Source: a virus
DNA: 64,000 nt
Strand: one strand, 5' to 3'
Virus record (IMG/VR): IMGVR_UViG_3300046171_000182
Coordinates: 71,207-135,206 of that record
The notes under the pieces were generated by a model. The model saw only the letters and a program-made list of their open reading frames with translations, ran no database searches and was not told the DNA's origin. This document shows, one piece after another, positions 3,328-29,265 of the stretch. The translations under genes and the position numbers were made by a program. Position 1 is the stretch's first letter. Each line of letters opens with the position of its first letter.

Positions 3328-3578
3328 TCGTAGTGCCCGCCTAGCACTGCTACAGTAGAGACTTCTTCATTAAGAATTTCTGCCTCTCTTGCTTTATAAG
3401 CTTGTTCAAATCCGTCTTCGTATTCGGTTAAACACTGCGATTCATTGTTCCATAATCTTTTAAAATAGCTTTCATAGTAACCTTCAACAATGTCGTCCGG
3501 TTCTGTTTTAGGAATAAGATGGCCTTTAACCATCCAAAATAAACGATTGGCTTCTTTGCGTTTCCATGGGCTGCACAT
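3324..3578 (-). CDS. hypothetical protein
   Basis: 84-aa ORF filling the gap, opposite strand. Confidence 0.6.
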   Translation of the reverse strand: MCSPWKRKEANRLFWMVKGHLIPKTEPDDIVEGYYESYFKRLWNNESQCLTEYEDGFEQAYKAREAEILNEEVSTVAVLGGHYD

Positions 3579-3668
3579 ATTGTCACACCTTTTGTTTAAG
3601 ATGTAGATATCTATAAAATGTTAGTGCTAACAAAATGAAAAAAAGTTTAAAAAAACGCAAATTAACTG

Positions 3669-3697
3669 TGTACATATGATAAGTACTGTGCTATAAT
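3669..3697 (+). promoter_or_regulatory. early promoter
   Basis: TTAACTG-TGTACA-N17-TATAAT. Confidence 0.8.
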
Positions 3698-3728
3698 GGT
3701 CTTATCAAATGAATGAGAGGAATCGTTA

Positions 3729-3890
3729 ATGTTATATCTAAAAGACATCATGAAGCTGTTAAACTGCGATATGGAAAAAGCGGAAAAAGTATTTGATAAT
3801 ATGGTGCTTGACTTTTCGCAGTCTACTACAAGACAGTTTAATGCTGAAGTAAAGATGGTTAACGAATTAATGGAACAAGGAGTTATATAA
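3729..3890 (+). CDS. small hypothetical protein (53 aa, below ORF-track cutoff)
   Basis: GAGAGG RBS, MLYLKDIMKLLNCD..., TAATG overlap with next gene. Confidence 0.6.
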   Translation: MLYLKDIMKLLNCDMEKAEKVFDNMVLDFSQSTTRQFNAEVKMVNELMEQGVI

Positions 3891-4840
3891 TGTCACATGA
3901 AGTAGAAACAATGGCTTACGCAGGTGAGCTTCCATGGCACGGTCTTGGAACAGAAGTTAGCAATGAATTAACACCATTGCAAATGATGCAAAAAGCTGGA
4001 GTCGACTGGGAAGTCGAACAGCAAAAAATCGTTACCGAATCTGGTCTCGAAATCAATGACAAGGTTGCTCTTGTCAGAACCTCAGACAATACTTTGCTTG
4101 ACGTGACTGGCAAAGATTGGAAGCCAGTACAAAACCAAGAAGCATTTACTTTCTTCTCAGAGTTTGTTGCTGCTGGTGATATGGAAATGCATACAGCAGG
4201 ATCTTTGAAAGAAGGTCGTAATGTGTGGGCTTTGGCAAAAGTCAAAGAGTCTTTTGATGTGTTCGGTGAAGATCGTGTTGACTCATATCTTCTCTTCTCA
4301 AATCCACATCAGTATGGAAAAGCAGTAGACGTACGGTTTACTCCAATTCGTGTTGTATGTAATAACACATTGACTTTCTCTTTACAGTCTGCTTCTAAAA
4401 ATTCTGTCAAAGTTGGTCACCGTACAGCATTCGATGCTGATACTGTAAAAGAAACTCTTGGTCTTGCATCTGAAAAGTTTGCTAAGTACAAAGAGATGGC
4501 TCAGTTCTTAGGCTCTCGTAAAGTTACCGCAGAGGCTCTTATCCAATATTACAACGATGTGTTTCCAACTACATCTCGTAAAGAAGAGAAAACTCCGGTT
4601 GTAAGCTATGACGACATGTCAAAGGCTGCGAAGATGTGTTACGACGCTCTTGAGGTTCAGCCAGGTGCTCAGTTCGCTGCTGGTACATGGTGGCAGGCAT
4701 TCAACAGTGTGACTTACTACACTGATCACCTACAAGGACGGAACTCAGAGAATCGTCTTCACAATCAGTGGTTTGGTTACAATCAAGCCAAAAAAGTAAC
4801 TGCGGCAGAAAAAGCAGTGGCATACGCCACTGCTGCCTAA
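3890..4840 (+). CDS. DUF932-family phage/plasmid protein
   Basis: M.HEVETMAY....PWHGLG, TAGSLK.GR.VW.LA, FTPIRVVCNNTL, GTWWQAFN.VT. Confidence 0.85.
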   Translation: MSHEVETMAYAGELPWHGLGTEVSNELTPLQMMQKAGVDWEVEQQKIVTESGLEINDKVALVRTSDNTLLDVTGKDWKPVQNQEAFTFFSEFVAAGDMEMHTAGSLKEGRNVWALAKVKESFDVFGEDRVDSYLLFSNPHQYGKAVDVRFTPIRVVCNNTLTFSLQSASKNSVKVGHRTAFDADTVKETLGLASEKFAKYKEMAQFLGSRKVTAEALIQYYNDVFPTTSRKEEKTPVVSYDDMSKAAKMCYDALEVQPGAQFAAGTWWQAFNSVTYYTDHLQGRNSENRLHNQWFGYNQAKKVTAAEKAVAYATAA

Positions 4841-6533: not shown

Positions 6534-6560
6534 AAGCAGCTTCGGCTGCTTTCTTTTTTT
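6534..6560 (+). terminator. Rho-independent terminator with cUUCGg loop
   Basis: AAGCAGC-TTCG-GCTGCTT followed by T-tract. Confidence 0.85.
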
Positions 6561-6561
6561 A

Positions 6562-6569
6562 TATAAATA
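6562..6569 (+). promoter_or_regulatory. T4-type late promoter
   Basis: TATAAATA shortly before ATG 6593. Confidence 0.8.
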
Positions 6570-8568: not shown

Positions 8569-8597
8569 TGTACATTTAAAAAGAATCGTGGTATAAT
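8569..8597 (+). promoter_or_regulatory. early promoter
   Basis: TAACTG-TGTACA-N17-TATAAT. Confidence 0.8.
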
Positions 8598-8603
8598 AAG
8601 CAT

Positions 8604-9833
8604 ATGGAAAATTTTAAAACACATATAACTGAAAATAAAAACACGCATATGACTCATATCGAAGATAAGGTTATATATGGTGGTGTTAAGGGAACACGAA
8701 ATGCTATTATGGCCTTACGTTCTTTACGAGATATGTTGAAAGGCGAACACGATGGAAACGTATCTGTTAAATGGGATGGTGCTCCTGCTATATTTGCTGG
8801 TATTGATCCTGGTGATGGAAGATTCTTCGTGGCAAAAAAAGGAATCTTTAATAAGAATCCCAAAGTTTATAAAACTCCTGCTGATGTTGATGCTGACACT
8901 AGCGGCGATCTTGCTGATAAGCTTAAAACCGCTTTGTCAGAACTCCCTGCCTTGGGTATCAAAGGTGTCGTGCAAGGCGATTTCTTATATGGACCAGGCG
9001 ATGTAAAAACTAAAAAGATTGCTGGTGACTCTTATGTTACATTTCATCCTAATACTATAGTCTATGCAGTGCCAAGTAACTCAGCTGCAGCTGCAGAGAT
9101 TAAGAAATCTAAAATAGGAATTGTATGGCATACTACATACACTGGTAAAACATTTGAAACTATGAGAGCGTCATATGGTGTAAATGTTTCGAAACTAAAA
9201 AAATCTAAAGGCGTGTGGTCGCAAGATGCAATGCTTAGAGATTTAACCAATATAACTATGAGCAAACGTGATACGGAGGAAGTCAATGAATATCTTTCAC
9301 AAGCTGGTAAAATCTTTAACAAAATCTCAGGAACAACCCTCAGGGAGCTCGAAAAACAGGAAGAGTTACAGAGGCTCATTGAAACGTACAACAACTCCTT
9401 TGTTAGATCGGGTACAGTCATTGGAAATACAAGAGGACATGTATCTGGGCTCATTCGCTTCGTCACGCAAAGATACAAAAAAGAAATAGATAAGCGCAAA
9501 ACCGAAAAAGGTAAAGGTGCACAGCAGCAAAAATTAGATACAATATTGTCATTCTTTAGTATACAAAACAAAAAAAGTTTAGAACAGATGTTTGAACTGC
9601 AAAAAGTTATAGTTTTGGCAAAATTAAAACTTATAAATATACTTAATAAGCTAGCGAAGGTGAAGACCTTCGTAAAGACTCATAATGGATACAAGGTAAC
9701 TGGAGAAGAAGGTTACGTTGCAATTGATAAACTTGGTGGTGATGCTGTTAAGATTGTTGATCGAATGGAATTTTCGTACAACAACTTCAGCAAAGATATA
9801 TTAAAGGGATGGGATAAACCAACGAGGAAGTAA
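8604..9833 (+). CDS. conserved T4-like phage protein (DUF6267-like) with ligase/capping-enzyme nucleotidyltransferase motifs
   Basis: VKWDG (motif I KxDG), QGD (III-like), EEGYV (IV), VKIV (V); N-terminal MENFKTHITE leader. Confidence 0.65.
   Translation: MENFKTHITENKNTHMTHIEDKVIYGGVKGTRNAIMALRSLRDMLKGEHDGNVSVKWDGAPAIFAGIDPGDGRFFVAKKGIFNKNPKVYKTPADVDADTSGDLADKLKTALSELPALGIKGVVQGDFLYGPGDVKTKKIAGDSYVTFHPNTIVYAVPSNSAAAAEIKKSKIGIVWHTTYTGKTFETMRASYGVNVSKLKKSKGVWSQDAMLRDLTNITMSKRDTEEVNEYLSQAGKIFNKISGTTLRELEKQEELQRLIETYNNSFVRSGTVIGNTRGHVSGLIRFVTQRYKKEIDKRKTEKGKGAQQQKLDTILSFFSIQNKKSLEQMFELQKVIVLAKLKLINILNKLAKVKTFVKTHNGYKVTGEEGYVAIDKLGGDAVKIVDRMEFSYNNFSKDILKGWDKPTRK
9632..9639 (+). promoter_or_regulatory. 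late promoter inside the DUF6267-like gene
   Basis: TATAAATA ~200 nt upstream of the basic-protein array. Confidence 0.55.
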
Positions 9834-10367
9834 ATGTATAGTTTTAAAGAACTAATGATATTGCCTGTTGAACCAGGCGAAGACGAGTACTTAAAGTACC
9901 GTGCGATGAAACGTCGCAAGCATATGTATGAAGCTACGATTCCTAATGGCCAAACAGCTATGACGAAGAAGCCTGATCTTACCAATAAAGATAAGAAAAC
10001 TATGGGTAAGATTGCAGATCTCATGAAGCGTGCTAATGAGGACAATGAAGAATCTACAGACGAAGCGCTATCAATGGCGGCTCGTCGTAAGCGTTCTCGC
10101 GATATGCGAAAAAATAAAAACAAATTAAGAATTGCTAGAAACCGCATGAAGAACCGTGTTGCTAATCCTGAGCGGATTAAGAAACGTGCGAAAAAGCAGG
10201 CAATAGATAAAATATATAAAAAGTTGACAAAAGGTATGTCAAGAAAAGATTTAACTCCTGCTAAAAAGGCTGAGCTTGAAAAACGTATTAGTAAAATGAA
10301 ACCAAGAGTAAATCGCATAGCAAAAAAGCTTTTGCCATCAGTAAGAAGAGCTGCACACGGAAAATGA
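9834..10367 (+). CDS. highly basic hypothetical protein, putative internal head protein
   Basis: MYSFKEL leader; very K/R-rich C-terminal module after TDE/ALS. Confidence 0.6.
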   Translation: MYSFKELMILPVEPGEDEYLKYRAMKRRKHMYEATIPNGQTAMTKKPDLTNKDKKTMGKIADLMKRANEDNEESTDEALSMAARRKRSRDMRKNKNKLRIARNRMKNRVANPERIKKRAKKQAIDKIYKKLTKGMSRKDLTPAKKAELEKRISKMKPRVNRIAKKLLPSVRRAAHGK

Positions 10368-11494
10368 TAAATCGGTTTAGTGAATACTTAGTAGAAGAAG
10401 AAAAAATTGGTTATTTGGTCTTTGGCCGAATGAATCCTCCTACTATTGGACATGGTAAATTATTAGATAAGCTCGCCACAACAGCTGGCCGAGCACCTTA
10501 TCGTATCTATCTGTCGCAGTCAAACGATCAAAAAGATAATCCTCTTACGTATTCTGACAAAGTAAAGTATGCACGTAAGATGTTTCCTCGTCACGCAAGA
10601 TCAATTATTATTGATAAAAAAGTCGTAACGCCCTTCCATGCACTATCTGCAATGTATAGTGCAGGATTTAAAAAGGTTATATTAGTTGCAGGATCTGATC
10701 GTGTAAAAGAATATGACTTGCGTCTAAATAAATATAATGGAAAAAAGGGTACTCATGGATTTTATAACTTTGATGGTGGTGTAAAAGTTGTTAGTGCAGG
10801 CCAAAGAGATCCTGATGGAAAAGGTGCAGAAGGCGCATCTGGTACAAAGCAAAGAGGTTATGCAAAGAATAACGACTTTACTGGATTTGCACAAGGATTA
10901 TCTAAAGCTATATCAAACCCTGATGCGAAGAAGATGTTCAACGCTGTACGCAATGGTATGGGGTTAAAAGAAGAGAATGAATTTAAAAGACATATTCAAC
11001 TTAAAACCGTATCAGAAACTAGAGAAGCTTTTATTAAAGGTGAGCTCTTTGAACTCGGGGAACAAGTCATTGTCAAGAAAACATCTGAGGTTGGTAAAAT
11101 CACACTCATCGGATCGAACTACGTCATTGTAGAAACTTCTGATAAGACTACGAGACAGTGGTTAGATGCTGTTGAGAAGATTGTAGAAGAAGCAAAGTAT
11201 GATTATGGAACTGATGCATCAGTAAAGTATATGAAAAAGACTACACCTGGACAGAATGAGAGCACACCTCAAGATTCTGACATTAAGGATCGTGAAGGAT
11301 CGCAGCCTAAAGCGTATCATAAAGGCCTAAAGAAAGCTACAAAGGTAGCAAGAGATCGGCACTTTAAGAAACATGGTAAAAAAGCAGATAACGATCCTAG
11401 TGCATATAAACCAGCACCAGGTGATAAAAAGAATAAAGGTAAAACTAAACAATCGACTTGGACTACTAAGTTTAAGCAGATGTATGGGGATTAA
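10364..11494 (+). CDS. cytidylyltransferase-like (HIGH) nucleotidyltransferase with appended basic modules
   Basis: FGRMNPPTIGH, VAGSDR, SAGQRDPD, ASGTKQR; leader MINRFSEYLVEE. Confidence 0.8.
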   Translation: MINRFSEYLVEEEKIGYLVFGRMNPPTIGHGKLLDKLATTAGRAPYRIYLSQSNDQKDNPLTYSDKVKYARKMFPRHARSIIIDKKVVTPFHALSAMYSAGFKKVILVAGSDRVKEYDLRLNKYNGKKGTHGFYNFDGGVKVVSAGQRDPDGKGAEGASGTKQRGYAKNNDFTGFAQGLSKAISNPDAKKMFNAVRNGMGLKEENEFKRHIQLKTVSETREAFIKGELFELGEQVIVKKTSEVGKITLIGSNYVIVETSDKTTRQWLDAVEKIVEEAKYDYGTDASVKYMKKTTPGQNESTPQDSDIKDREGSQPKAYHKGLKKATKVARDRHFKKHGKKADNDPSAYKPAPGDKKNKGKTKQSTWTTKFKQMYGD

Positions 11495-11734
11495 ATGATA
11501 AACTTCAAAGAATATATCACAGAAGATAAAGCAGGTAGCTCACTTGCCGATAAATCTAAAAAGTCAGGTATCTCTACAGGTACTTTGCGTAAAGTATTTA
11601 ATCGTGGCGTTGCTGCATGGAAAACCGGTCACAGACCTGGCACCACGCCAACTCAGTGGGGACATGCACGAGTCAATGCTTTTATTGTCAAAAAGAAAAA
11701 AGGTGGGCTTAACCATGATAAGGACCTAGCATAA
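11495..11734 (+). CDS. small basic protein (DUF5824-like), putative internal head protein
   Basis: MINFKEYITE leader; KSGIS..L.KV..RG.AAW.TGHRPG..QW..ARV. Confidence 0.7.
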   Translation: MINFKEYITEDKAGSSLADKSKKSGISTGTLRKVFNRGVAAWKTGHRPGTTPTQWGHARVNAFIVKKKKGGLNHDKDLA

Positions 11735-12081
11735 TGAAATCTTTTATTCAAATAAGGCAGGAACTAAATGAATCTCCTTACGGTGATCCATATAGAACTG
11801 TTCAACGAACAAAAGATGCTATGTCTAGTCATACTGCTGCTATAAAAAAACATGATACAGCTATGCAATCTCATATAAACAAAGCTAATGCTGCAGAGAA
11901 AAAGGGTTTAAATACCAAAGCTGATAACCATAGAGAAGCTGCTAATGCACACCACCTTGGAAAAGAAGATCACGATCACGCTAAAAGCTTATTAAAAAAA
12001 CATGGACCAGATCATAATGGATATGAATCAGCTGCAAAAAGTGCACATTCAAGTTCAGATCGTATTCATAAAGATAACTAG
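11734..12081 (+). CDS. His/Ala-rich putative internal head protein
   Basis: MKSFIQIRQELNE leader; repeated HxxAAxxH helices. Confidence 0.6.
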   Translation: MKSFIQIRQELNESPYGDPYRTVQRTKDAMSSHTAAIKKHDTAMQSHINKANAAEKKGLNTKADNHREAANAHHLGKEDHDHAKSLLKKHGPDHNGYESAAKSAHSSSDRIHKDN

Positions 12082-12090
12082 GGGTTAAAA

Positions 12091-13422
12091 ATGAAAACAT
12101 TTAAAGAAATAAGTGAAGCCTCAGGCGTTTCATCAAGCGGTGCACAGCACATGCTTAGTAATGATGCTGAGAAAAAAGCACATTCAGCTCTCATGCAAAA
12201 GAAGCATGGCGTTAAAACAACTTATCATGGCAGCGATGAACTAAAATATCACGGTTCTCAAAAGAATGTAAAGAAAGCTCTTGGTACTCATTATGGCGGT
12301 GATCATGATCATGCAAAAGATGATCATCCACACATTTATAAAGAAAACGTCAAAACCGCTGATAGAAAACCTGAAATCTATACAAAGCCTGATGGAAAAA
12401 AGGGTACACGTATGGTGCCTATGGATAGAGAAGTTATCAAGAAGGAAAAAACTCTTGAATGGCTAAAGGCATCTCTTGCAAGAGAAGCTGCAAAAGTTAA
12501 ACCACGTCAAGATGACATGGAAGAAGCTTACGAAAACACAATGTACTGTAAAAAGTGTGGGTGTGAAAGAGGTAATCCAGATCCTGACTGTTCATGCAAA
12601 ATGGAAAACGCTTCATTGACAGATGCACAATGTTATTCAGAACAATCTAAATGTGGATCTTTACGTAAAGAAGACGTTAACGAGCTAACAATTGCTGATG
12701 TCCAAAAGGCTACTGCGATGGCAAAGAAACGTCAAGCAAAAGAACGTGAAGCCGGAAAGAAAAGTGTATCAACCACTGATCTTGGAGCACGTATGCCTAA
12801 AAAAGAAACATTTGAGCCTCATATGATGTATGATCCAAAAACAGGCAAAGGCTATAAAGCTGAAAAAGAAGCCGATCACCTTCGAATGAAGAAGATGGGA
12901 TACACTCACGACAAACCTAAAAACGAAGGCGTTAAAACATTTGCCGAGATCTCAAAAGGTATGGCAGGCCGTTATATCAAAAAGGCACAAGTAAGTACAG
13001 CAGATGCTGCAAAGAGTACTGAGCGTGGATACGTTGACTCACGCTCGCCTGATCGTGGTATTGCTACAGCAGGAAAAGCTCAGACTAGAAAAGGCATTAA
13101 GACATTTATTAATCGCAATAAGGGTACATCTACTGCTGTTAATAAATTAACTGGTAAAGCTAAAGTACCTGCAAGAGAAAGTAAAGGCATTGACGCAATG
13201 AAGAAGGCTGGTAATGCTAAAGCTGATGCTGAAGCAGCCGACCGTAAGAAAATGAAAAACGAAATTTCAAATAATAAGATGGGCCAATACGTACGTAAAG
13301 CTGGCGCCGATATTGCAAAAAAGGCCGGAGCTGGAGATACCGATAAAGCTAAAGCAAGAGTAAAAGGCGTATCTAAAGCTATGGATAAGATGGACAAGAA
13401 CAGATTGTTTGGAAGGCAGTAA
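12091..13422 (+). CDS. modular basic polyprotein-like putative internal head protein
   Basis: MKTFKEISE leader; short K-rich modules separated by xxE motifs. Confidence 0.7.
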   Translation: MKTFKEISEASGVSSSGAQHMLSNDAEKKAHSALMQKKHGVKTTYHGSDELKYHGSQKNVKKALGTHYGGDHDHAKDDHPHIYKENVKTADRKPEIYTKPDGKKGTRMVPMDREVIKKEKTLEWLKASLAREAAKVKPRQDDMEEAYENTMYCKKCGCERGNPDPDCSCKMENASLTDAQCYSEQSKCGSLRKEDVNELTIADVQKATAMAKKRQAKEREAGKKSVSTTDLGARMPKKETFEPHMMYDPKTGKGYKAEKEADHLRMKKMGYTHDKPKNEGVKTFAEISKGMAGRYIKKAQVSTADAAKSTERGYVDSRSPDRGIATAGKAQTRKGIKTFINRNKGTSTAVNKLTGKAKVPARESKGIDAMKKAGNAKADAEAADRKKMKNEISNNKMGQYVRKAGADIAKKAGAGDTDKAKARVKGVSKAMDKMDKNRLFGRQ

Positions 13423-13835
13423 TGACAACTACACGAGAGCTGTTAGCACAAATATATCAACATAGTCAAGTTGGAACTATGGAAGAAGCTAAAGATCCTG
13501 GCGAATATGATCAGGAAGGTGGAATGGCTAAAGGTCAATTAAAAACAATGATTGATGCTGCTCAAGAGTTGCATGATATGCTAGGTGAAAATGATAACCT
13601 TCCAGAATGGGTACAGTCAAAAATAACAAAGGCTACCGATTATATTGATTCAGTAAGAGATTATATGAAGAGCGAAGTATCTGAAGGTCCGGCACGAGAT
13701 CGTATTCTAAAGCAAATGGATAAAGCTAGTGGTAGAACACAAGCCGATCGTGAAGCTGATGCAAAGAAAGCTGCAGCACGACGTAAGGCTGCAGATAAAG
13801 ACTTAGCCGATTTTAGAAAGAAAATGGGATCATGA
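13422..13835 (+). CDS. conserved phage protein (EGxMAKxQL...LPEWVQSKIT module)
   Basis: recognisable T4-like marine phage module flanked by MEE/VSE sites. Confidence 0.7.
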   Translation: MTTTRELLAQIYQHSQVGTMEEAKDPGEYDQEGGMAKGQLKTMIDAAQELHDMLGENDNLPEWVQSKITKATDYIDSVRDYMKSEVSEGPARDRILKQMDKASGRTQADREADAKKAAARRKAADKDLADFRKKMGS

Positions 13836-14065
13836 TAAAGTTTAAGCAATTCATATCTGAAAAAAAATCAGAGTCTTGGGAAGCAGGATATAAACGTAGA
13901 GTTGTGAAAACTACTGATGCCGATCATAAAGCCGATGGCTATAAATGGAGAATCAAAGGTAAAGAACGTCCTGAGATTTCTATTAAATTATATAAATCTA
14001 AACCAAATCAAGCTGAATTTAACAAGCAGATGAGACGAGTTGCGGGGCACGAGTTCGGTGGATAG
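13832..14065 (+). CDS. small putative internal head protein
   Basis: MIKFKQFISE leader. Confidence 0.7.
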   Translation: MIKFKQFISEKKSESWEAGYKRRVVKTTDADHKADGYKWRIKGKERPEISIKLYKSKPNQAEFNKQMRRVAGHEFGG

Positions 14066-14348
14066 ATTTAAGACTTTCGCAGAAAAAGACTCAAAGGGTC
14101 ATTTTCGTGCAACCGATAAGGGTGCCGGCATGACACAAAAAGGAGTCGATGCTGAGAATAGAAGAACTGGTGGTAACCTAAAGACTGCGGTTACTACTAA
14201 ACCTAGTAAGTTGAAGAAGGGATCCAAAGCTGCTAATAGGCGTAAATCATATTGCGCTCGAAGTGCAGGACAAATGAAAAAGTTTCCAGCTGCCGCTAAA
14301 GATCCTGATAGTAGACTTCGTCAAGCGAGGCGGAGGTGGAATTGTTAG
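14058..14348 (+). CDS. basic protein (DUF6321-like)
   Basis: GTG start MDRFKTFAE; GMT.KG...NLK.AV...RRKSYCARS...RRWNC. Confidence 0.7.
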   Translation: MDRFKTFAEKDSKGHFRATDKGAGMTQKGVDAENRRTGGNLKTAVTTKPSKLKKGSKAANRRKSYCARSAGQMKKFPAAAKDPDSRLRQARRRWNC

Positions 14349-17641: not shown

Positions 17642-17670
17642 TTTACAAAGATGTGGTTTTGATATATAAT
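17642..17670 (+). promoter_or_regulatory. sigma70-type promoter of RNR gene
   Basis: TTTACA-N17-TATAAT. Confidence 0.7.
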
Positions 17671-17709: not shown

Positions 17710-19926
17710 ATGGCAACAGCTTCTGTTGACACACGTAAACTTTTGTCCGAAACAAAGTTTTACGATAGTTACTCACGCTTTAACGACGATAACGAAAGGT
17801 ACGAAACATGGGAGGAAGCTGTAGATCGTGTGATCGAAATGCACGCAAATCAATACAAAGAAAATGATAACGGATTAAAGTCTTATTTAGAAGAAGCTAG
17901 ACAGGCTTATAAAGAACAAAGAGTGTTAGGTGCTCAACGTGCTCTTCAATTCGGTGGAGACCAATTGCTTAAGCATCAAATGAGAATGTATAACTGTACG
18001 TCTTCATATGCAGATAGGCCATCATTTTTCGGTGAGATTTTCTATATTTTATTATGTGGCGCAGGTGCAGGATTTTCGGTACAAGAGCATCATATTGCTA
18101 GACTTCCAAAGATTACAGCACGAAGCAAGCCTGCAAAAACTCACGTAGTCACAGATGACATTGAAGGATGGGCAACCGCTGTTGATATTCTTATGTCGTC
18201 TTATTTTGCAGATGGTGGTAAATATCCAGACTATGCCGGCCGCAGAGTCTATTTTGATTTGTCAAATATCCGTCCAAAGGGATCTAAAATTTCTGGTGGA
18301 TTTAAAGCTCCAGGCCCTGATGGTCTACGACGTGCTCTTGATAAGATTGAACATCTGTTGCAAGACATCGTAATCGATGCAAAGGAATCAATTGCGTTGC
18401 GTCCAATTAATGTTTATGATATTTGTATGCATACCGCTGATGCTGTACTATCAGGCGGTGTTCGTCGCTCTGCGACTATTTGTCTGTTCTCACCTGACGA
18501 CGAAGAAATGATGTCAGCTAAAACAGGTAATTGGTTTATCGATAATCCACAACGTGGTCGTTCAAATAACTCCGCTGTCATAGTTCGAGACACAACTACA
18601 CCTGAACAGTTCGGCAAGATCATGACAAATGTAAAAGAGTTTGGTGAACCAGGTTTTGTGTTTGTAGAGTCAACTGAGCATACAACTAACCCATGTGTTG
18701 AGATAGGAATGTTCCCGCAGATAGACGGACAGTCTGGATGGCAGGGATGTAATCTTACAGAAATTAACGGTGGTAAATGTGTAACTAAAGAAGATTTCTT
18801 TCTTGCATGCCGCGCTGGTGCGATCTTAGGTACCCTCCAGGCAGGTTACACTGACTTTAAATTCTTACCGGACACAACAAAAGATATTTTTGACCGTGAA
18901 GCTTTGCTTGGCGTATCAATTACAGGATGGATGAATAATCCGGATATTCTATTTAATGCAGAAATACTTGAGGAAGGGGCAAACATTGTCAGACAAGTCA
19001 ACAGAGAAGTTGCAGGAGTTATTGGAATCAACGCAGCGGCTAGAACGACTTGTGTTAAACCAAGCGGCAACGCTTCGGTTCTATTGCAAACTGCTAGCGG
19101 TATTCATGCTGAGCATTCTAGCATGTACATACGTAATGTTCAAATGAATAAAGAGTCTGAGGTTACTCAGGCAATACAAAAAACCAATCCACACATGGTC
19201 GAAGAATCAGTTTGGTCTTCAGGCGGAACTGATGTCGTTGTATCATTTCCTATTTTGCCTAAAGAAGGATCAATGCTTAAAGACGAATTAATCGGAGTAG
19301 ATCATTTAGAACTAGTAAAGAAAGCTCAAGAACATTGGGTGAATGCTGGTACTAACGAAGAGCTATGTGCTGATAAAGGTATTCGACACAATGTATCTAA
19401 TACTATTATTGTAAAGGATTGGGATGAAGTAGAAGATTACGTATTTAAGAATCGTCGCAGCTTTGCTGGTATTTCTTTCTTATCTTCTATGGGCGATAAA
19501 GACTTTAATCAAGCACCAAACACCGGTGTCATCGATGCAAATACCATGGTTGATAAATACGGAACAGCTGCCATCTTTGCAAGTGGCTTAGTTGTTGATG
19601 CACTCAATGCATTTGATAATCTTTGGAATGCTTGTTCTACGGCTCAAGGTATGGGTGAAGATTTATCAGTCGAGTCTACACAAACTGTATTGAAGAAAGA
19701 TTGGATTCGTAGGTTCAACAACTTTGCAAATAATTATTTAGATGGTAATTTAAAGGAAACAGAATATTGCTTGAAGGATTCGTACTTGTTACATAAGTGG
19801 AATAAGATTAACGCTAACTTTAGGGATATTAGTTGGGAACATGATCTGACCGAGAAGAAGTATACTGACGTTGATACGTTAGGTGCGGCAGCTTGTGCAG
19901 GCGGAGCTTGTGAGATAGACTTTTAA
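17710..19926 (+). CDS. nrdJ: class II (adenosylcobalamin-dependent) ribonucleotide reductase
   Basis: YNC, GGVRRSA, TNPCVEI, TCVKPSG, C-terminal CAGGACE; no beta-subunit gene adjacent. Confidence 0.85.
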   Translation: MATASVDTRKLLSETKFYDSYSRFNDDNERYETWEEAVDRVIEMHANQYKENDNGLKSYLEEARQAYKEQRVLGAQRALQFGGDQLLKHQMRMYNCTSSYADRPSFFGEIFYILLCGAGAGFSVQEHHIARLPKITARSKPAKTHVVTDDIEGWATAVDILMSSYFADGGKYPDYAGRRVYFDLSNIRPKGSKISGGFKAPGPDGLRRALDKIEHLLQDIVIDAKESIALRPINVYDICMHTADAVLSGGVRRSATICLFSPDDEEMMSAKTGNWFIDNPQRGRSNNSAVIVRDTTTPEQFGKIMTNVKEFGEPGFVFVESTEHTTNPCVEIGMFPQIDGQSGWQGCNLTEINGGKCVTKEDFFLACRAGAILGTLQAGYTDFKFLPDTTKDIFDREALLGVSITGWMNNPDILFNAEILEEGANIVRQVNREVAGVIGINAAARTTCVKPSGNASVLLQTASGIHAEHSSMYIRNVQMNKESEVTQAIQKTNPHMVEESVWSSGGTDVVVSFPILPKEGSMLKDELIGVDHLELVKKAQEHWVNAGTNEELCADKGIRHNVSNTIIVKDWDEVEDYVFKNRRSFAGISFLSSMGDKDFNQAPNTGVIDANTMVDKYGTAAIFASGLVVDALNAFDNLWNACSTAQGMGEDLSVESTQTVLKKDWIRRFNNFANNYLDGNLKETEYCLKDSYLLHKWNKINANFRDISWEHDLTEKKYTDVDTLGAAACAGGACEIDF

Positions 19927-27987: not shown

Positions 27988-28630
27988 AAAATTATGTAAT
28001 TACAATTATGGATAATGAGAAGTCCATCTCAGTTGCTAATAGATGTATTAAGTCAGGACTATCTACTGGTGGTTTAGAAATAGAACATTGGAAAGCTACT
28101 ACTCCAGCAGATGACCTTGACGATTTTATTAAATCTGAAAATATTAATATATCTGCAATGGACGAAATTTATTCCCGCACATCAAATTGTGTAGCTGCGT
28201 TTATATCTCATTATAAGCTATGGAAGTTATGTGCCGAAGGTAAAGAAGAAGTTACAATCTTTGAACACGACGCGGTTTGCGTAAATAATATTCCAACACA
28301 CATAGTTTACAATGGAGTTATATCTCTCGGTAAACCATCTTATGGGAAATATAAAACTCCTTTGGTCTTTGGAATTAATCCGCTTACTTCAAAACAATAT
28401 TTCCCTGGCGCTCATGCATATAGAATTAAACCAAATGCTGCAAAGATGTTAGTTCAGCAAGCTAAGATTTGAGGCAAGGACCTACTGATGTATTTTTAAA
28501 TTTAAATAGTTTTGCATTCTTACAAGAATTTTATCCATGGCCCGTAGAAGCAAGAGACAGTTTTACTACTATTCAAAGTGAAATTGGATGTAGAGCAAAG
28601 CATAATAAGGTAGAGATCATTGAGGCTTGA
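27984..28630 (+). CDS. glycosyltransferase family 25-like (indels near 28470)
   Basis: SHY.LW, IFEHDA, GAHAY.I.P.AA; shifted frame continues ARPTDVFL. Confidence 0.7.
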
Positions 28631-29265
28631 TTATGATGGATTTATGACTGGTACGGATTCCAAAACAGAATGGATGTTACCATGGTTCATAGAAAACTTT
28701 AAAAAATATAACAGCTCTCATTTGTTAGGTTGTTGACTTTGGCATGTCAGAAGAGATGGCGTCATATGCAAGTAAGCATGCAGATTCACTTGCCGATCTA
28801 AGAGAGCAAAAGAGTAGAGGATGGTTTGCAAAACCACTCTCCATGATGAACTCTCCATTCAGAAAAACATTCTGGTTAGATCTAGATTGTGAAATATTAG
28901 GAGAGATCGATCATATGTTTGAGTTGATTGTTCCAGAAAAGTTAAACATGGTGGCTGATAGACCATGGTCAAAACGATTTAAGACTACAATGTATAATAG
29001 CGGTGTAGTTGGATTTGAAAGTAAGCCAACAATCTTAGCTAAATGGACTGCTGGGTTAACTCCATCTCTACATAGAGGAGATCAAGAAGGTCTGCACGCA
29101 TTACTCGATGATCTTCAAAGACTAATTTTTATTAACGAGATTCCACATAAGTATAATACACTGAGGTTAGATCACTTAGATGGAACTGCTCCAAAAGATA
29201 TATTGATTAATCACTGGACAGGAACAAAGGGCAATACGCATATTCGGAGTTTAATGAATGAGTAA
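28620..29265 (+). CDS. GT-A glycosyltransferase-like protein (indel near 28728)
   Basis: TG.D...W.LPW, DFGMS, WF.KP, WLDLDC (DxD), NSGV, GDQE, HWTG. Confidence 0.65.

Follow-up and report, generated by a model that had tools for sequence, protein, structure and literature searches.

Within the 64,000 nucleotides of IMG/VR virus record IMGVR_UViG_3300046171_000182 analysed here (hereafter the window; bases 71207-135206 of a 135-kb contig with an estimated completeness of 77%), an open reading frame (ORF) of 443 amino acids with an isoelectric point of 9.7 occupies positions 12091-13422 on the plus strand, as the initial annotation had described. Its product reads as a short leader followed by nine small units (A to I; Table 1), and all nine unit ends inside the ORF, as defined by cassette gains and losses and by module anchors, are Glu. 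The annotation had proposed that such residues punctuate a chain of exchangeable mini-modules, which a prohead protease would cut into small effector peptides within the head under a single targeting leader. We compare the ORF with its relatives and with the internal head proteins of phage T4, and find that, on sequence comparison, a modular cassette design of the protein family is well supported and that the product is probably a packaged, protease-processed cargo precursor.

The source genome is that of a T4-like marine myophage. The right half of the window encodes T4-type baseplate and tail proteins, and the part of the contig 5′ of the window carries terminase, sheath, tube and portal genes, an acidic gp67-like ORF, an S77 protease gene, a scaffold-like ORF and the gene for Gp23. 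The protease is a prohead protease of the gp21 type (Peptidase_S77, PF03420; E = 1.3e-39). Gp23 is the major capsid protein (PF07068; E = 8.9e-147); the portal and scaffold ORFs adjoin, and it retains the T4 maturation site (SYLTE/AAPAG versus SFLTE/AEIGG in T4; slashes mark cleavage sites or unit borders throughout). Among cultured phages, the closest relatives found are the Methylophilales phages Melnitz (Kyanoviridae), which have a syntenic array of hypothetical genes flanked by a DnaB-like helicase and a primase; a megablast search of the whole region against phage records returned no match.

Table 1. Positions in the window of the leader and units of the 443-residue ORF, of the neighbouring genes and of putative expression signals.
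Feature	Position	Strand	Residues	Description
Leader (L)	12091..12117	+	1-9	MKTFKEISE; T4-type capsid-targeting sequence, predicted cleavage ISE/A
Unit A	12118..12345	+	10-85	His-rich alpha/beta mini-domain, end HPHIYKE
Unit B	12346..12447	+	86-119	NVKTADRKPEIYTKPDGKKGTRMVP..., predicted beta-hairpin, end KKE
Unit C	12448..12525	+	120-145	helix LEWLKASLAREA...DDMEE
Unit D	12526..12672	+	146-194	Cys-rich, AYENTMYCKKCGC...SLRKE
Unit E	12673..12807	+	195-239	DVNE/LTIADVQKATAMAKKRQ... helix, end MPKKE
Unit F	12808..12927	+	240-279	TFEPHMMYDPKTGKGYKAEKEADHLRMKKMGYTHDKPKNE (HMMYDPKTG unit), most widespread module
Unit G	12928..13179	+	280-363	degenerate internal leader GVKTFAEISKG at start, net charge +13, predicted disordered, end VPARE
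Unit H	13180..13263	+	364-391	SKGIDAMKKAGNAKADAE...KMKNE
Unit I	13264..13422	+	392-443 plus stop	ISNNKMGQYVRKA..., basic helical hairpin, paralog of unit G head
DUF6267 gene	8604-9833	+		MENFKTHITE leader-like start; E = 9e-102
Gene	9834-10367	+		MYSFKELM.. leader-like start
Cytidylyltransferase-like gene	10364-11494	+		MINRFSEYLVEE leader-like start
DUF5824 gene	11495-11734	+		MINFKEYITE leader
Unit-A paralog gene	11734-12081	+		MKSFIQIRQELNE leader-like start
Downstream leader-bearing gene	13832-14065	+		MIKFKQFISE
Downstream leader-bearing gene	14058-14348	+		GTG start, MDRFKTFAE
Sigma-70-like promoter	8569..8597	+		TGTACA-17-TATAAT, TG extension, 10/12 matches, just 5′ of the first gene of the array
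Terminator-like hairpin	6534-6551	+
T4-type late-promoter motif	6562-6569	+		TATAAATA, following the hairpin

All of the motifs that had been read as unit borders are present in the ORF: ISE9/ASG, YKE85/NVKTAD, MEE145/AYE (CKKCGC...CSC), VNE198/LTIAD, KKE239/TFEPHMMYDPKTG, KNE279/GVKTFAE, ARE363/SKG and KNE391/ISNNKMGQYVRKA. One border needs correction: units D and E meet at RKE194/DVNE, and VNE198/L is part of the head of unit E, where it forms a conserved V-x-E. The two units with an EIS..Y.(K/R)KA motif are paralogous, as stated earlier, with a local alignment score of 51 against 28.4 ± 5.2 (maximum 48) in 500 shuffles. Pfam and PHROGs searches with the 443-residue ORF found no family at a meaningful score and no enzyme domain, and there is no peptidase domain in it according to Pfam.

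Relatives of the ORF were gathered by a word-indexed search (951 proteins of similar length, 319 shorter and 92 longer) and by an exhaustive HMMER search (702 representatives at E <= 0.001), and they cover from 100% down to 8% of the query. When the nine units were annotated on the first 349 proteins, drawn from the similar-length, shorter and HMMER sets, 76 different unit strings emerged. Close relatives are for the most part collinear, their differences being whole cassettes (LBCDEFGI in 27 proteins, LBCDEG in nine, LBCEGHI in six and LABCEGHI in five), and more distant ones have tandem copies (FFFF, AAA) or a changed order (BFD, FD, EFD, EFBGI, DEB); a further 132 proteins carry unit F only, many of them possibly being fragments. 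The clearest reordering is seen between proteins P0099 and P0102, which are otherwise collinear and have units A and G swapped at DVNE/, YKE/ and ATE/. In loci L009 and L010 a gene stops exactly at a unit end, in L009 right after ...KMKNE. Because the relatives are mosaics, collinear full-length homologs with one fold were not found among them; instead, the modules recur in other phages, where they may stand singly or as tandem copies, be gained or missing and at times be reordered, with borders at Glu, as had been anticipated for a shufflable system. Global pairwise alignment for mapping insertions and deletions was dropped, since it forced replaced modules to align and was too noisy, and anchored contexts were used in its place.

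The behavior of the individual units illustrates this. Most relatives read MKxFxELxE/NVKTAD, the leader being joined straight to unit B, so that unit A is an insert exactly between the leader Glu and unit B; elsewhere it occurs singly, as AA or as AAA. Its sequence includes six conserved His, two of them invariant and the other four nearly so, it has a paralog in the adjacent ORF 11734-12081, and a protein atlas search with it returned unnamed viral clusters only (score 0.76). Unit B is found behind unit F or unit E in other proteins, and unit C directly behind the leader in P0075 and P0074. Unit D, with seven Cys in the pattern C-x2-C-x-C...C-x-C, is dropped whole (AYEN...LRKE) from LBCEGHI-type relatives, which read ...DDMEE/DVQE/LTIAD, and lies behind unit F in P0138 and P0141. 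Unit F, with conserved His and Met, was seen in 158 distinct contexts, four tandem copies among them, and is lost whole (TFEPH...KPKNE) from the LBCDEG relatives. Unit H is optional between units G and I (LBCDEFGI versus LBCDEFGHI), being lost as SKGID...KMKNE, and unit I is entered as (M/F/V)-(S/D)-E/(I/L)SN in 23/23 contexts. As a separate observation, the six conserved His of unit A, the seven Cys of unit D and the conserved His and Met of unit F raise the possibility that the cargo is a set of metal-binding mini-domains.

Structure prediction gives a similar picture. An AlphaFold model of the whole ORF, built from a 69-sequence alignment, has a mean predicted local distance difference test (pLDDT) score of 60.7 and a predicted template modelling (pTM) score of 0.28. 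It contains confident islands – unit A, the hairpin of unit B (pLDDT 87-91) and helices at residues 113-135, 201-220 and 376-439 – and the low-pLDDT stretches that separate them, 78-88, 185-198, 224-246 and 271-366, contain the junctions. Modelled alone, unit A reaches a pLDDT of 93.3 and a pTM of 0.83. Confident islands between low-confidence stretches and the low pTM fit independent beads and not a single fold, so far as a model can indicate. Fold searches with the whole model found generic helical hairpins only (residues 372-443, Z up to 8.7), and those with unit A only a weak KH-like resemblance below a meaningful level (Foldseek E at least 0.13, VIA Z at most 6.1).

A count of xxE motifs within one protein is trivial, and the pattern becomes real only by comparison with relatives. 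We used five conserved anchors, picked post hoc, and counted distinct upstream contexts away from the N-terminus only. The residue preceding the junction (P1) is Glu in 6/9, 16/16, 13/14, 7/7 and 7/8 contexts by anchor, or 49/54 in total against a Glu background of 7.1%; the remaining five contexts have V, V, S, K and A in its place, and Asp never occurs. Among these anchors, E/N precedes unit B in the 6/9 distinct internal contexts, V-x-E/L precedes LTIADVQKA in all 16, E/AHDPKHV has Glu in 13 of 14, and unit G is entered as E/G(V/L/I)K(T/S)F in all seven internal contexts. Distinct tails of unit F contain Glu within nine residues in 121/124 cases and a hydrophobic-x-E motif in 84/124, typically as P-E-(V/M/I)-x-E, where the background density of the motif is 1.9% per residue. 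A blind test on the ends of BLAST high-scoring segment pairs (HSPs) was only moderately sharp, placing 42% of 361 breakpoints within three residues of the ten proposed sites, roughly threefold the 14% obtained at random. Frequent HSP breakpoints at 314, 12 and 216 lie off the proposed sites and reflect decay of similarity within units.

The usual consensus of T4 gp21 is L/I-x-E. T4-like sites in the ORF are ISE9 and VNE198, and looser ones are YKE85, MEE145, YSE184 and FAE286. Glu at nine unit ends, junctions lying in low-pLDDT stretches and the P1 preference across contexts are what a multi-site S77 substrate would display. Proteases of the S77 type in giant phages are reported in a T4 review to cut after Glu with few other determinants (PMC9026906), which leaves room for junctions that are not T4-like without establishing them.

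The leader itself has the key features of a T4 capsid-targeting sequence (CTS), with Phe at position 4, Ile at position 7 as P3 and Glu at position 9; the leader of T4 IPIII is longer by one residue. T4 IpI begins MKTFKEF and both IpII and IpIII begin MKTYQEFIAE/A (read from AF158101), and BLASTP of the ORF N-terminus against the T4 N-termini gives E = 0.025. Two neighbouring genes, starting MINFKEYITE and MIKFKQFISE, have the exact T4 spacing, with aromatic residues at positions 4 and 7, Ile at 8 and Glu at 10. According to the T4 review, the first ten residues of IPIII are enough for encapsidation, targeting depends on CTS residues 4 and 7, processing depends on 8 and 10 and is blocked by Asp at position 10, and other T-even phages have differing basic proteins with CTS-like leaders (PMC9026906).

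A strict leader pattern matches 5/670 ORFs of the genome, all in adjacent genes between 10364 and 14065, and looser forms occur at the starts of genes 8604, 9834 and 14058. In 23 related loci the pattern matches 54/610 plus-strand ORFs versus 1/614 on the minus strand, and the leader sites of these loci all end in x-E, nearly all with L, I or V at P3. In most relatives MKxFxELxE stands immediately before unit B, and units that are separately encoded each carry a leader, unit G beginning with MKSFKTFAEISKD or MKKFSEISKG and unit A with MKTFKELRE. The S77 protease of the phage itself (G000 28230-28892) begins MKLIAEYTE, the same nine-residue pattern, which fits the suggestion, made in the T4 review, that gp21 propeptides act in a CTS-like manner (PMC9026906); a small ORF beside the protease gene contains MKTLKNLRE/A. 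The match to the T4 CTS, the leaders on stand-alone modules and the strand bias of the pattern all favor the earlier proposal of a single targeting leader.

The ORF also contains an internal copy of the leader, KNE/GVKTFAEISKG, which looks like a fused gene start. The DNA at this junction (aac gaa ggc gtt aaa aca ttt) resembles the spacer and leader at 12076-12105 (aac tag ggg tta aaa atg aaa aca ttt), from which it differs in GAA for TAG and the absence of six bases. Two loci offer related observations. In L012, a 57-amino acid gene (2551-2724) consists of the leader MKIIKFKTFAE and one Lys/Asp-rich unit, which is also embedded in a cytidylyltransferase of locus L026 and in P0087. In L026, a polyprotein (3461-4807) begins MAKVDDKKYAEFMAK..., with a CTS-like KKYAEFM six residues inward and Lys at the cleavage position.

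The same design had been noted in neighbouring ORFs, and this is borne out by modules that they share with the polyprotein relatives. In P0280, a relative of ORF 14651, the HMMYDP cassette is inserted exactly at MEKTE/...KNE/STRWP; the ALKGDQHK unit stands behind ...TNE/ in P0161; and the KIADLMKRANE unit of ORF 9834 is embedded in polyprotein relatives. Units of 9834, of the 10364 tail and of 14651 thus occur inside polyprotein relatives and the reverse, and the array from 8604 to approximately 15350 shares one module pool. The genes at 13832-14348 are conserved in loci L006, L009, L010, L012 and L016. The second of these, 14058-14348, was listed as an ORF starting at TTG 14040; the ATG used by its relatives gives MSSVDRFKTF..., and it overlaps the end of the preceding leader-bearing gene. 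The DUF6267 protein contains KWDGAPAIF, a ligase-like KxDG motif, and in other phages PHROG 455, PHROG 3041 and P0179 fuse DUF6267 and cytidylyltransferase-like domains together and with DUF5824 and a Zeta/AAA_33 kinase fold. The leader-bearing ligase-like DUF6267 and cytidylyltransferase-like enzymes may be injected enzymes.

The late motif that follows the terminator-like hairpin at 6534-6569 could give rise to late transcripts through the array, and the plus strand has no strong terminator after it until about 17600. In Melnitz, TATAAATA lies just 5′ of the first leader-bearing gene. The motif is not enriched in the window (12 matches versus 10 expected), and its positions alone are suggestive. 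T4 ipI, ipII and ipIII have early-type hexamers and no TATAAATA directly upstream, like the array. The best sigma-70-like match of the region lies elsewhere, at 17642-17670 (TTTACA-17-TATAAT, 11/12), just 5′ of a class II ribonucleotide reductase gene (17710-19926).

Unit F extends beyond T4-like phages, being found in large Gly-rich proteins of other lineages in which GG-type flanks replace the Glu-type flanks. In G003, a genome of 112 kb that is 98% complete and has no S77 match, it lies in a 1274-amino acid protein (L083 4479-8303) whose PHROG match is to a 'virion structural protein' (E = 3.8e-19), and in P0438 it stands alongside a crAss cargo-protein-1 domain (E = 8.7e-15). On these matches, unit F keeps company with virion and cargo proteins in other lineages. 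Searches for the crAss cargo domain in G003 and G021 found no match; control genomes were likewise unmatched, which makes the search uninformative. The G003-type group (MKAEFLKI/MKAQILKI, 15 proteins) has hydrophobic-x-E in 0/12 distinct tails and any Glu in one, versus 115/161 and 156/161, respectively, for all other unit-F proteins. The absence of Glu flanks there indicates that they are not part of the unit F fold and are a feature of the T4-like context. In an S77 screen of contigs with leaderless or Glu-free forms, 16/20 had no match, but these are fragments 16-56% complete except for G003; three further records comprise one complete genome of 152 kb with S77 and two fragments without a match. 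P0179 and P0355 combine cytidylyltransferase, DUF5824, the Zeta/AAA_33 kinase fold and HNH with unit F.

In our interpretation, held with a probability of roughly 0.55, the ORF of this T4-like marine myophage specifies a modular precursor from which internal head (ejection) proteins derive. The leader would carry the entire chain into the prohead scaffolding core, where the gp21-type protease, cutting after Glu, would remove it at ISE9/A and cut some or all of the inter-unit Glu sites, most confidently the hydrophobic-P3 VNE198/L and perhaps YKE85/N, MEE145/A and FAE286/I. The released pieces would include the His-rich alpha/beta domain, the Cys-rich knuckle, the HMMYDPKTG unit and very basic Lys/Ala-rich helices, and would remain with the DNA and enter the host alongside it. 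With a single leader per ORF, units could be added or swapped without a targeting signal of their own. The parts of this proposal differ in strength: head targeting is rather probable, and the chance of cleavage at several junctions is even at best. More tentatively, and with the odds somewhat against it, the arrangement may serve multiplexed delivery in marine T4-like phages, in which one leader and exchangeable Glu-ended mini-domains yield a phage-specific, S77-released and injected cocktail of small metal-binding and DNA-binding peptides, and interconversion of stop and Glu codons, with gain or loss of leaders, continually repartitions the module pool among ORFs.

Several observations weigh against the internal-protein interpretation. 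The evidence for packaging and cleavage here consists of sequences and models. In the complete 203-kb S77-positive genome G001, an 821-amino acid cytidylyltransferase fusion and a 652-amino acid unit-F protein are leaderless, and the leader pattern matches only 10/89 long relatives. At the internal leader copy, Lys (EISKG) replaces the expected cleavage Glu. P3 at internal junctions is mostly K, T, Q, A or R, unlike the L, I or V of leader sites, the exceptions being V-x-E/LTIAD and many unit-F tails, and the 30 Glu of the ORF show no enrichment of hydrophobic-x-E (7 versus 5.6 ± 2.1 in shuffles). The array has a sigma-70-like promoter and a replication and nucleotide-metabolism setting, lying between replication and ribonucleotide reductase genes and not among head genes. 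Fusion in this family is to kinase, NT5C, nucleotidyltransferase and HNH domains rather than to portal, MuF or capsid ones. In the S77 contrast, the side that lacks the protease is represented by a single near-complete genome, G003. Promoter and position, the nucleotide-metabolism partners, the leaderless versions in an S77 phage and the unconserved P3, together with the generally acidic linkers of unit F, are what would be expected if the product were instead a non-virion early 'beads-on-a-string' protein, its small and possibly metal- or nucleic-acid-binding domains acting in the cytoplasm beside the neighbouring nucleotidyltransferase, ligase-like and kinase enzymes with nothing being cut; Glu would then mark acidic linkers and unit ends, and the N-terminal motif would have some other use, for example as a translation start context or a short interaction helix. 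We consider this unlikely, at about one chance in a few, since the leader matches the experimentally defined key positions of the T4 CTS and is present on the protease of the phage as well, every separately encoded unit has regained a leader, P1 across the 54 contexts is mostly Glu and never Asp, the Glu flanks vanish in a lineage without S77, and early-type promoters precede the T4 ip genes too.

A role inside the head could also be confined to assembly, with the product acting as an accessory, scaffold-like protein of the prohead core that is shredded, its peptides mostly leaving the head like those of T4 gp22, gp67 and gp68 and having no effector role after injection. T4 core proteins are indeed reported to be cut into multiple fragments that are mostly expelled, with small ones kept (PMC9026906), the small ORF adjacent to the protease has the same kind of leader, and many units are short and helical or disordered. 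An assembly component would nevertheless not usually show such extreme presence, absence and shuffling among close relatives, unit A is modelled with confidence as a 76-residue domain with conserved His, and enzymes of the same array bear the leader, so that we regard this as improbable. Less probable still is that the junctions are fossils of gene fusion, in which formerly separate leader-bearing genes were joined by change of TAA or TAG stops to GAA or GAG, leaving the junction Glu and the internal leader as functionless scars. The likeness of the internal junction DNA to the upstream spacer and leader, and genes of relatives that end exactly at unit ends, agree with such a history. Mutation of a stop codon can lead just as well to Lys, Gln, Tyr, Ser, Leu or Trp, yet the residue at P1 is overwhelmingly Glu, also at junctions free of leader relics such as E/AHDPKHV and V-x-E/LTIAD, and a fusion history is in any case compatible with selection for cleavage sites.

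If the internal-protein interpretation is correct, the targeting and processing logic of T4 operates in abundant ocean phages (pelagimyophage- and Melnitz-like) and has been extended there to a cassette system with hundreds of variants, which would point to phage-host conflict at a level not yet explored in SAR11- and OM43-type hosts. A leader together with Glu-terminated units would then constitute a sequence rule for virion cargo, and nature would supply a design for loading T4-type capsids with several small proteins. In the literature searched we found no description of a chain of Glu-ended, exchangeable mini-units under one leader and no paper on DUF6267, DUF5824 or DUF6321, and 'capsid targeting sequence' combined with cyanophage returned the T4 review alone. 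The portions searched of a pelagimyophage paper (PMC7029224) make no mention of internal proteins, prohead or polyprotein. Virion-proteome data for this phage group were not found in the literature searched, and virion-proteome tables of cyanophages may have a bearing on packaging.

T4 internal proteins are textbook examples of phage proteins co-injected with DNA, and in the single case where a role is known, the protein counteracts a restriction system of the host by blocking it. The T-even ip loci are reportedly hyperplastic, as Repoila and colleagues are said to have described in 1994. The array resembles IPI, IPII and IPIII (and Alt) in several respects: its leader of about ten residues agrees with theirs at the key positions and in having Glu at the cleavage site, the genome is T4-like and encodes an S77 protease and a scaffolding core, the mature parts are basic, leader-bearing genes of unrelated sequence stand in tandem, and an early-type promoter lies directly 5′. 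It differs in that the T4 proteins are single small proteins whose packaging is proven, whereas here nine cassettes are chained under one leader and packaging is predicted. The mature parts show no homology: BLASTP against T4 IPIII gives a best E of 1.4, and against IPI only the N-terminus matches. Such homology is not strictly defining, as the T4 internal proteins share only the CTS among themselves (PMC3012670).

Other systems share part of the logic. In the T4 core proteins gp22, gp67 and gp68, too, gp21 cuts behind Glu at several positions and yields small fragments (PMC9026906), but these are conserved assembly proteins and not hypervariable, shuffled, autonomous units. Many head proteins of phiKZ, 201phi2-1 and SPN3US are cut after Glu by S77-related proteases, often at several sites (PMC9026906), and the few other determinants of these cuts would accommodate the variable P3 seen here; the inner-body and ejection proteins of such giant phages belong to another lineage, lack a T4-type leader, are large and are not, in the passages available, described as cassette arrays. 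Polyvalent proteins, which Iyer et al. (2017; PMC5512222) liken to viral polyproteins, also join many unrelated domains and are predicted to be packaged with DNA and released by proteolysis, but their domains number 2-15, are mostly enzymatic and often include an embedded peptidase (PMC5512222). The ORF has units of 26-84 residues, no Pfam enzyme domain, Glu-marked junctions and a presumed trans-acting S77 protease, and its genomic context is different. By its sequence features, the leader-bearing gene array belongs with the T4 internal proteins, a known kind.

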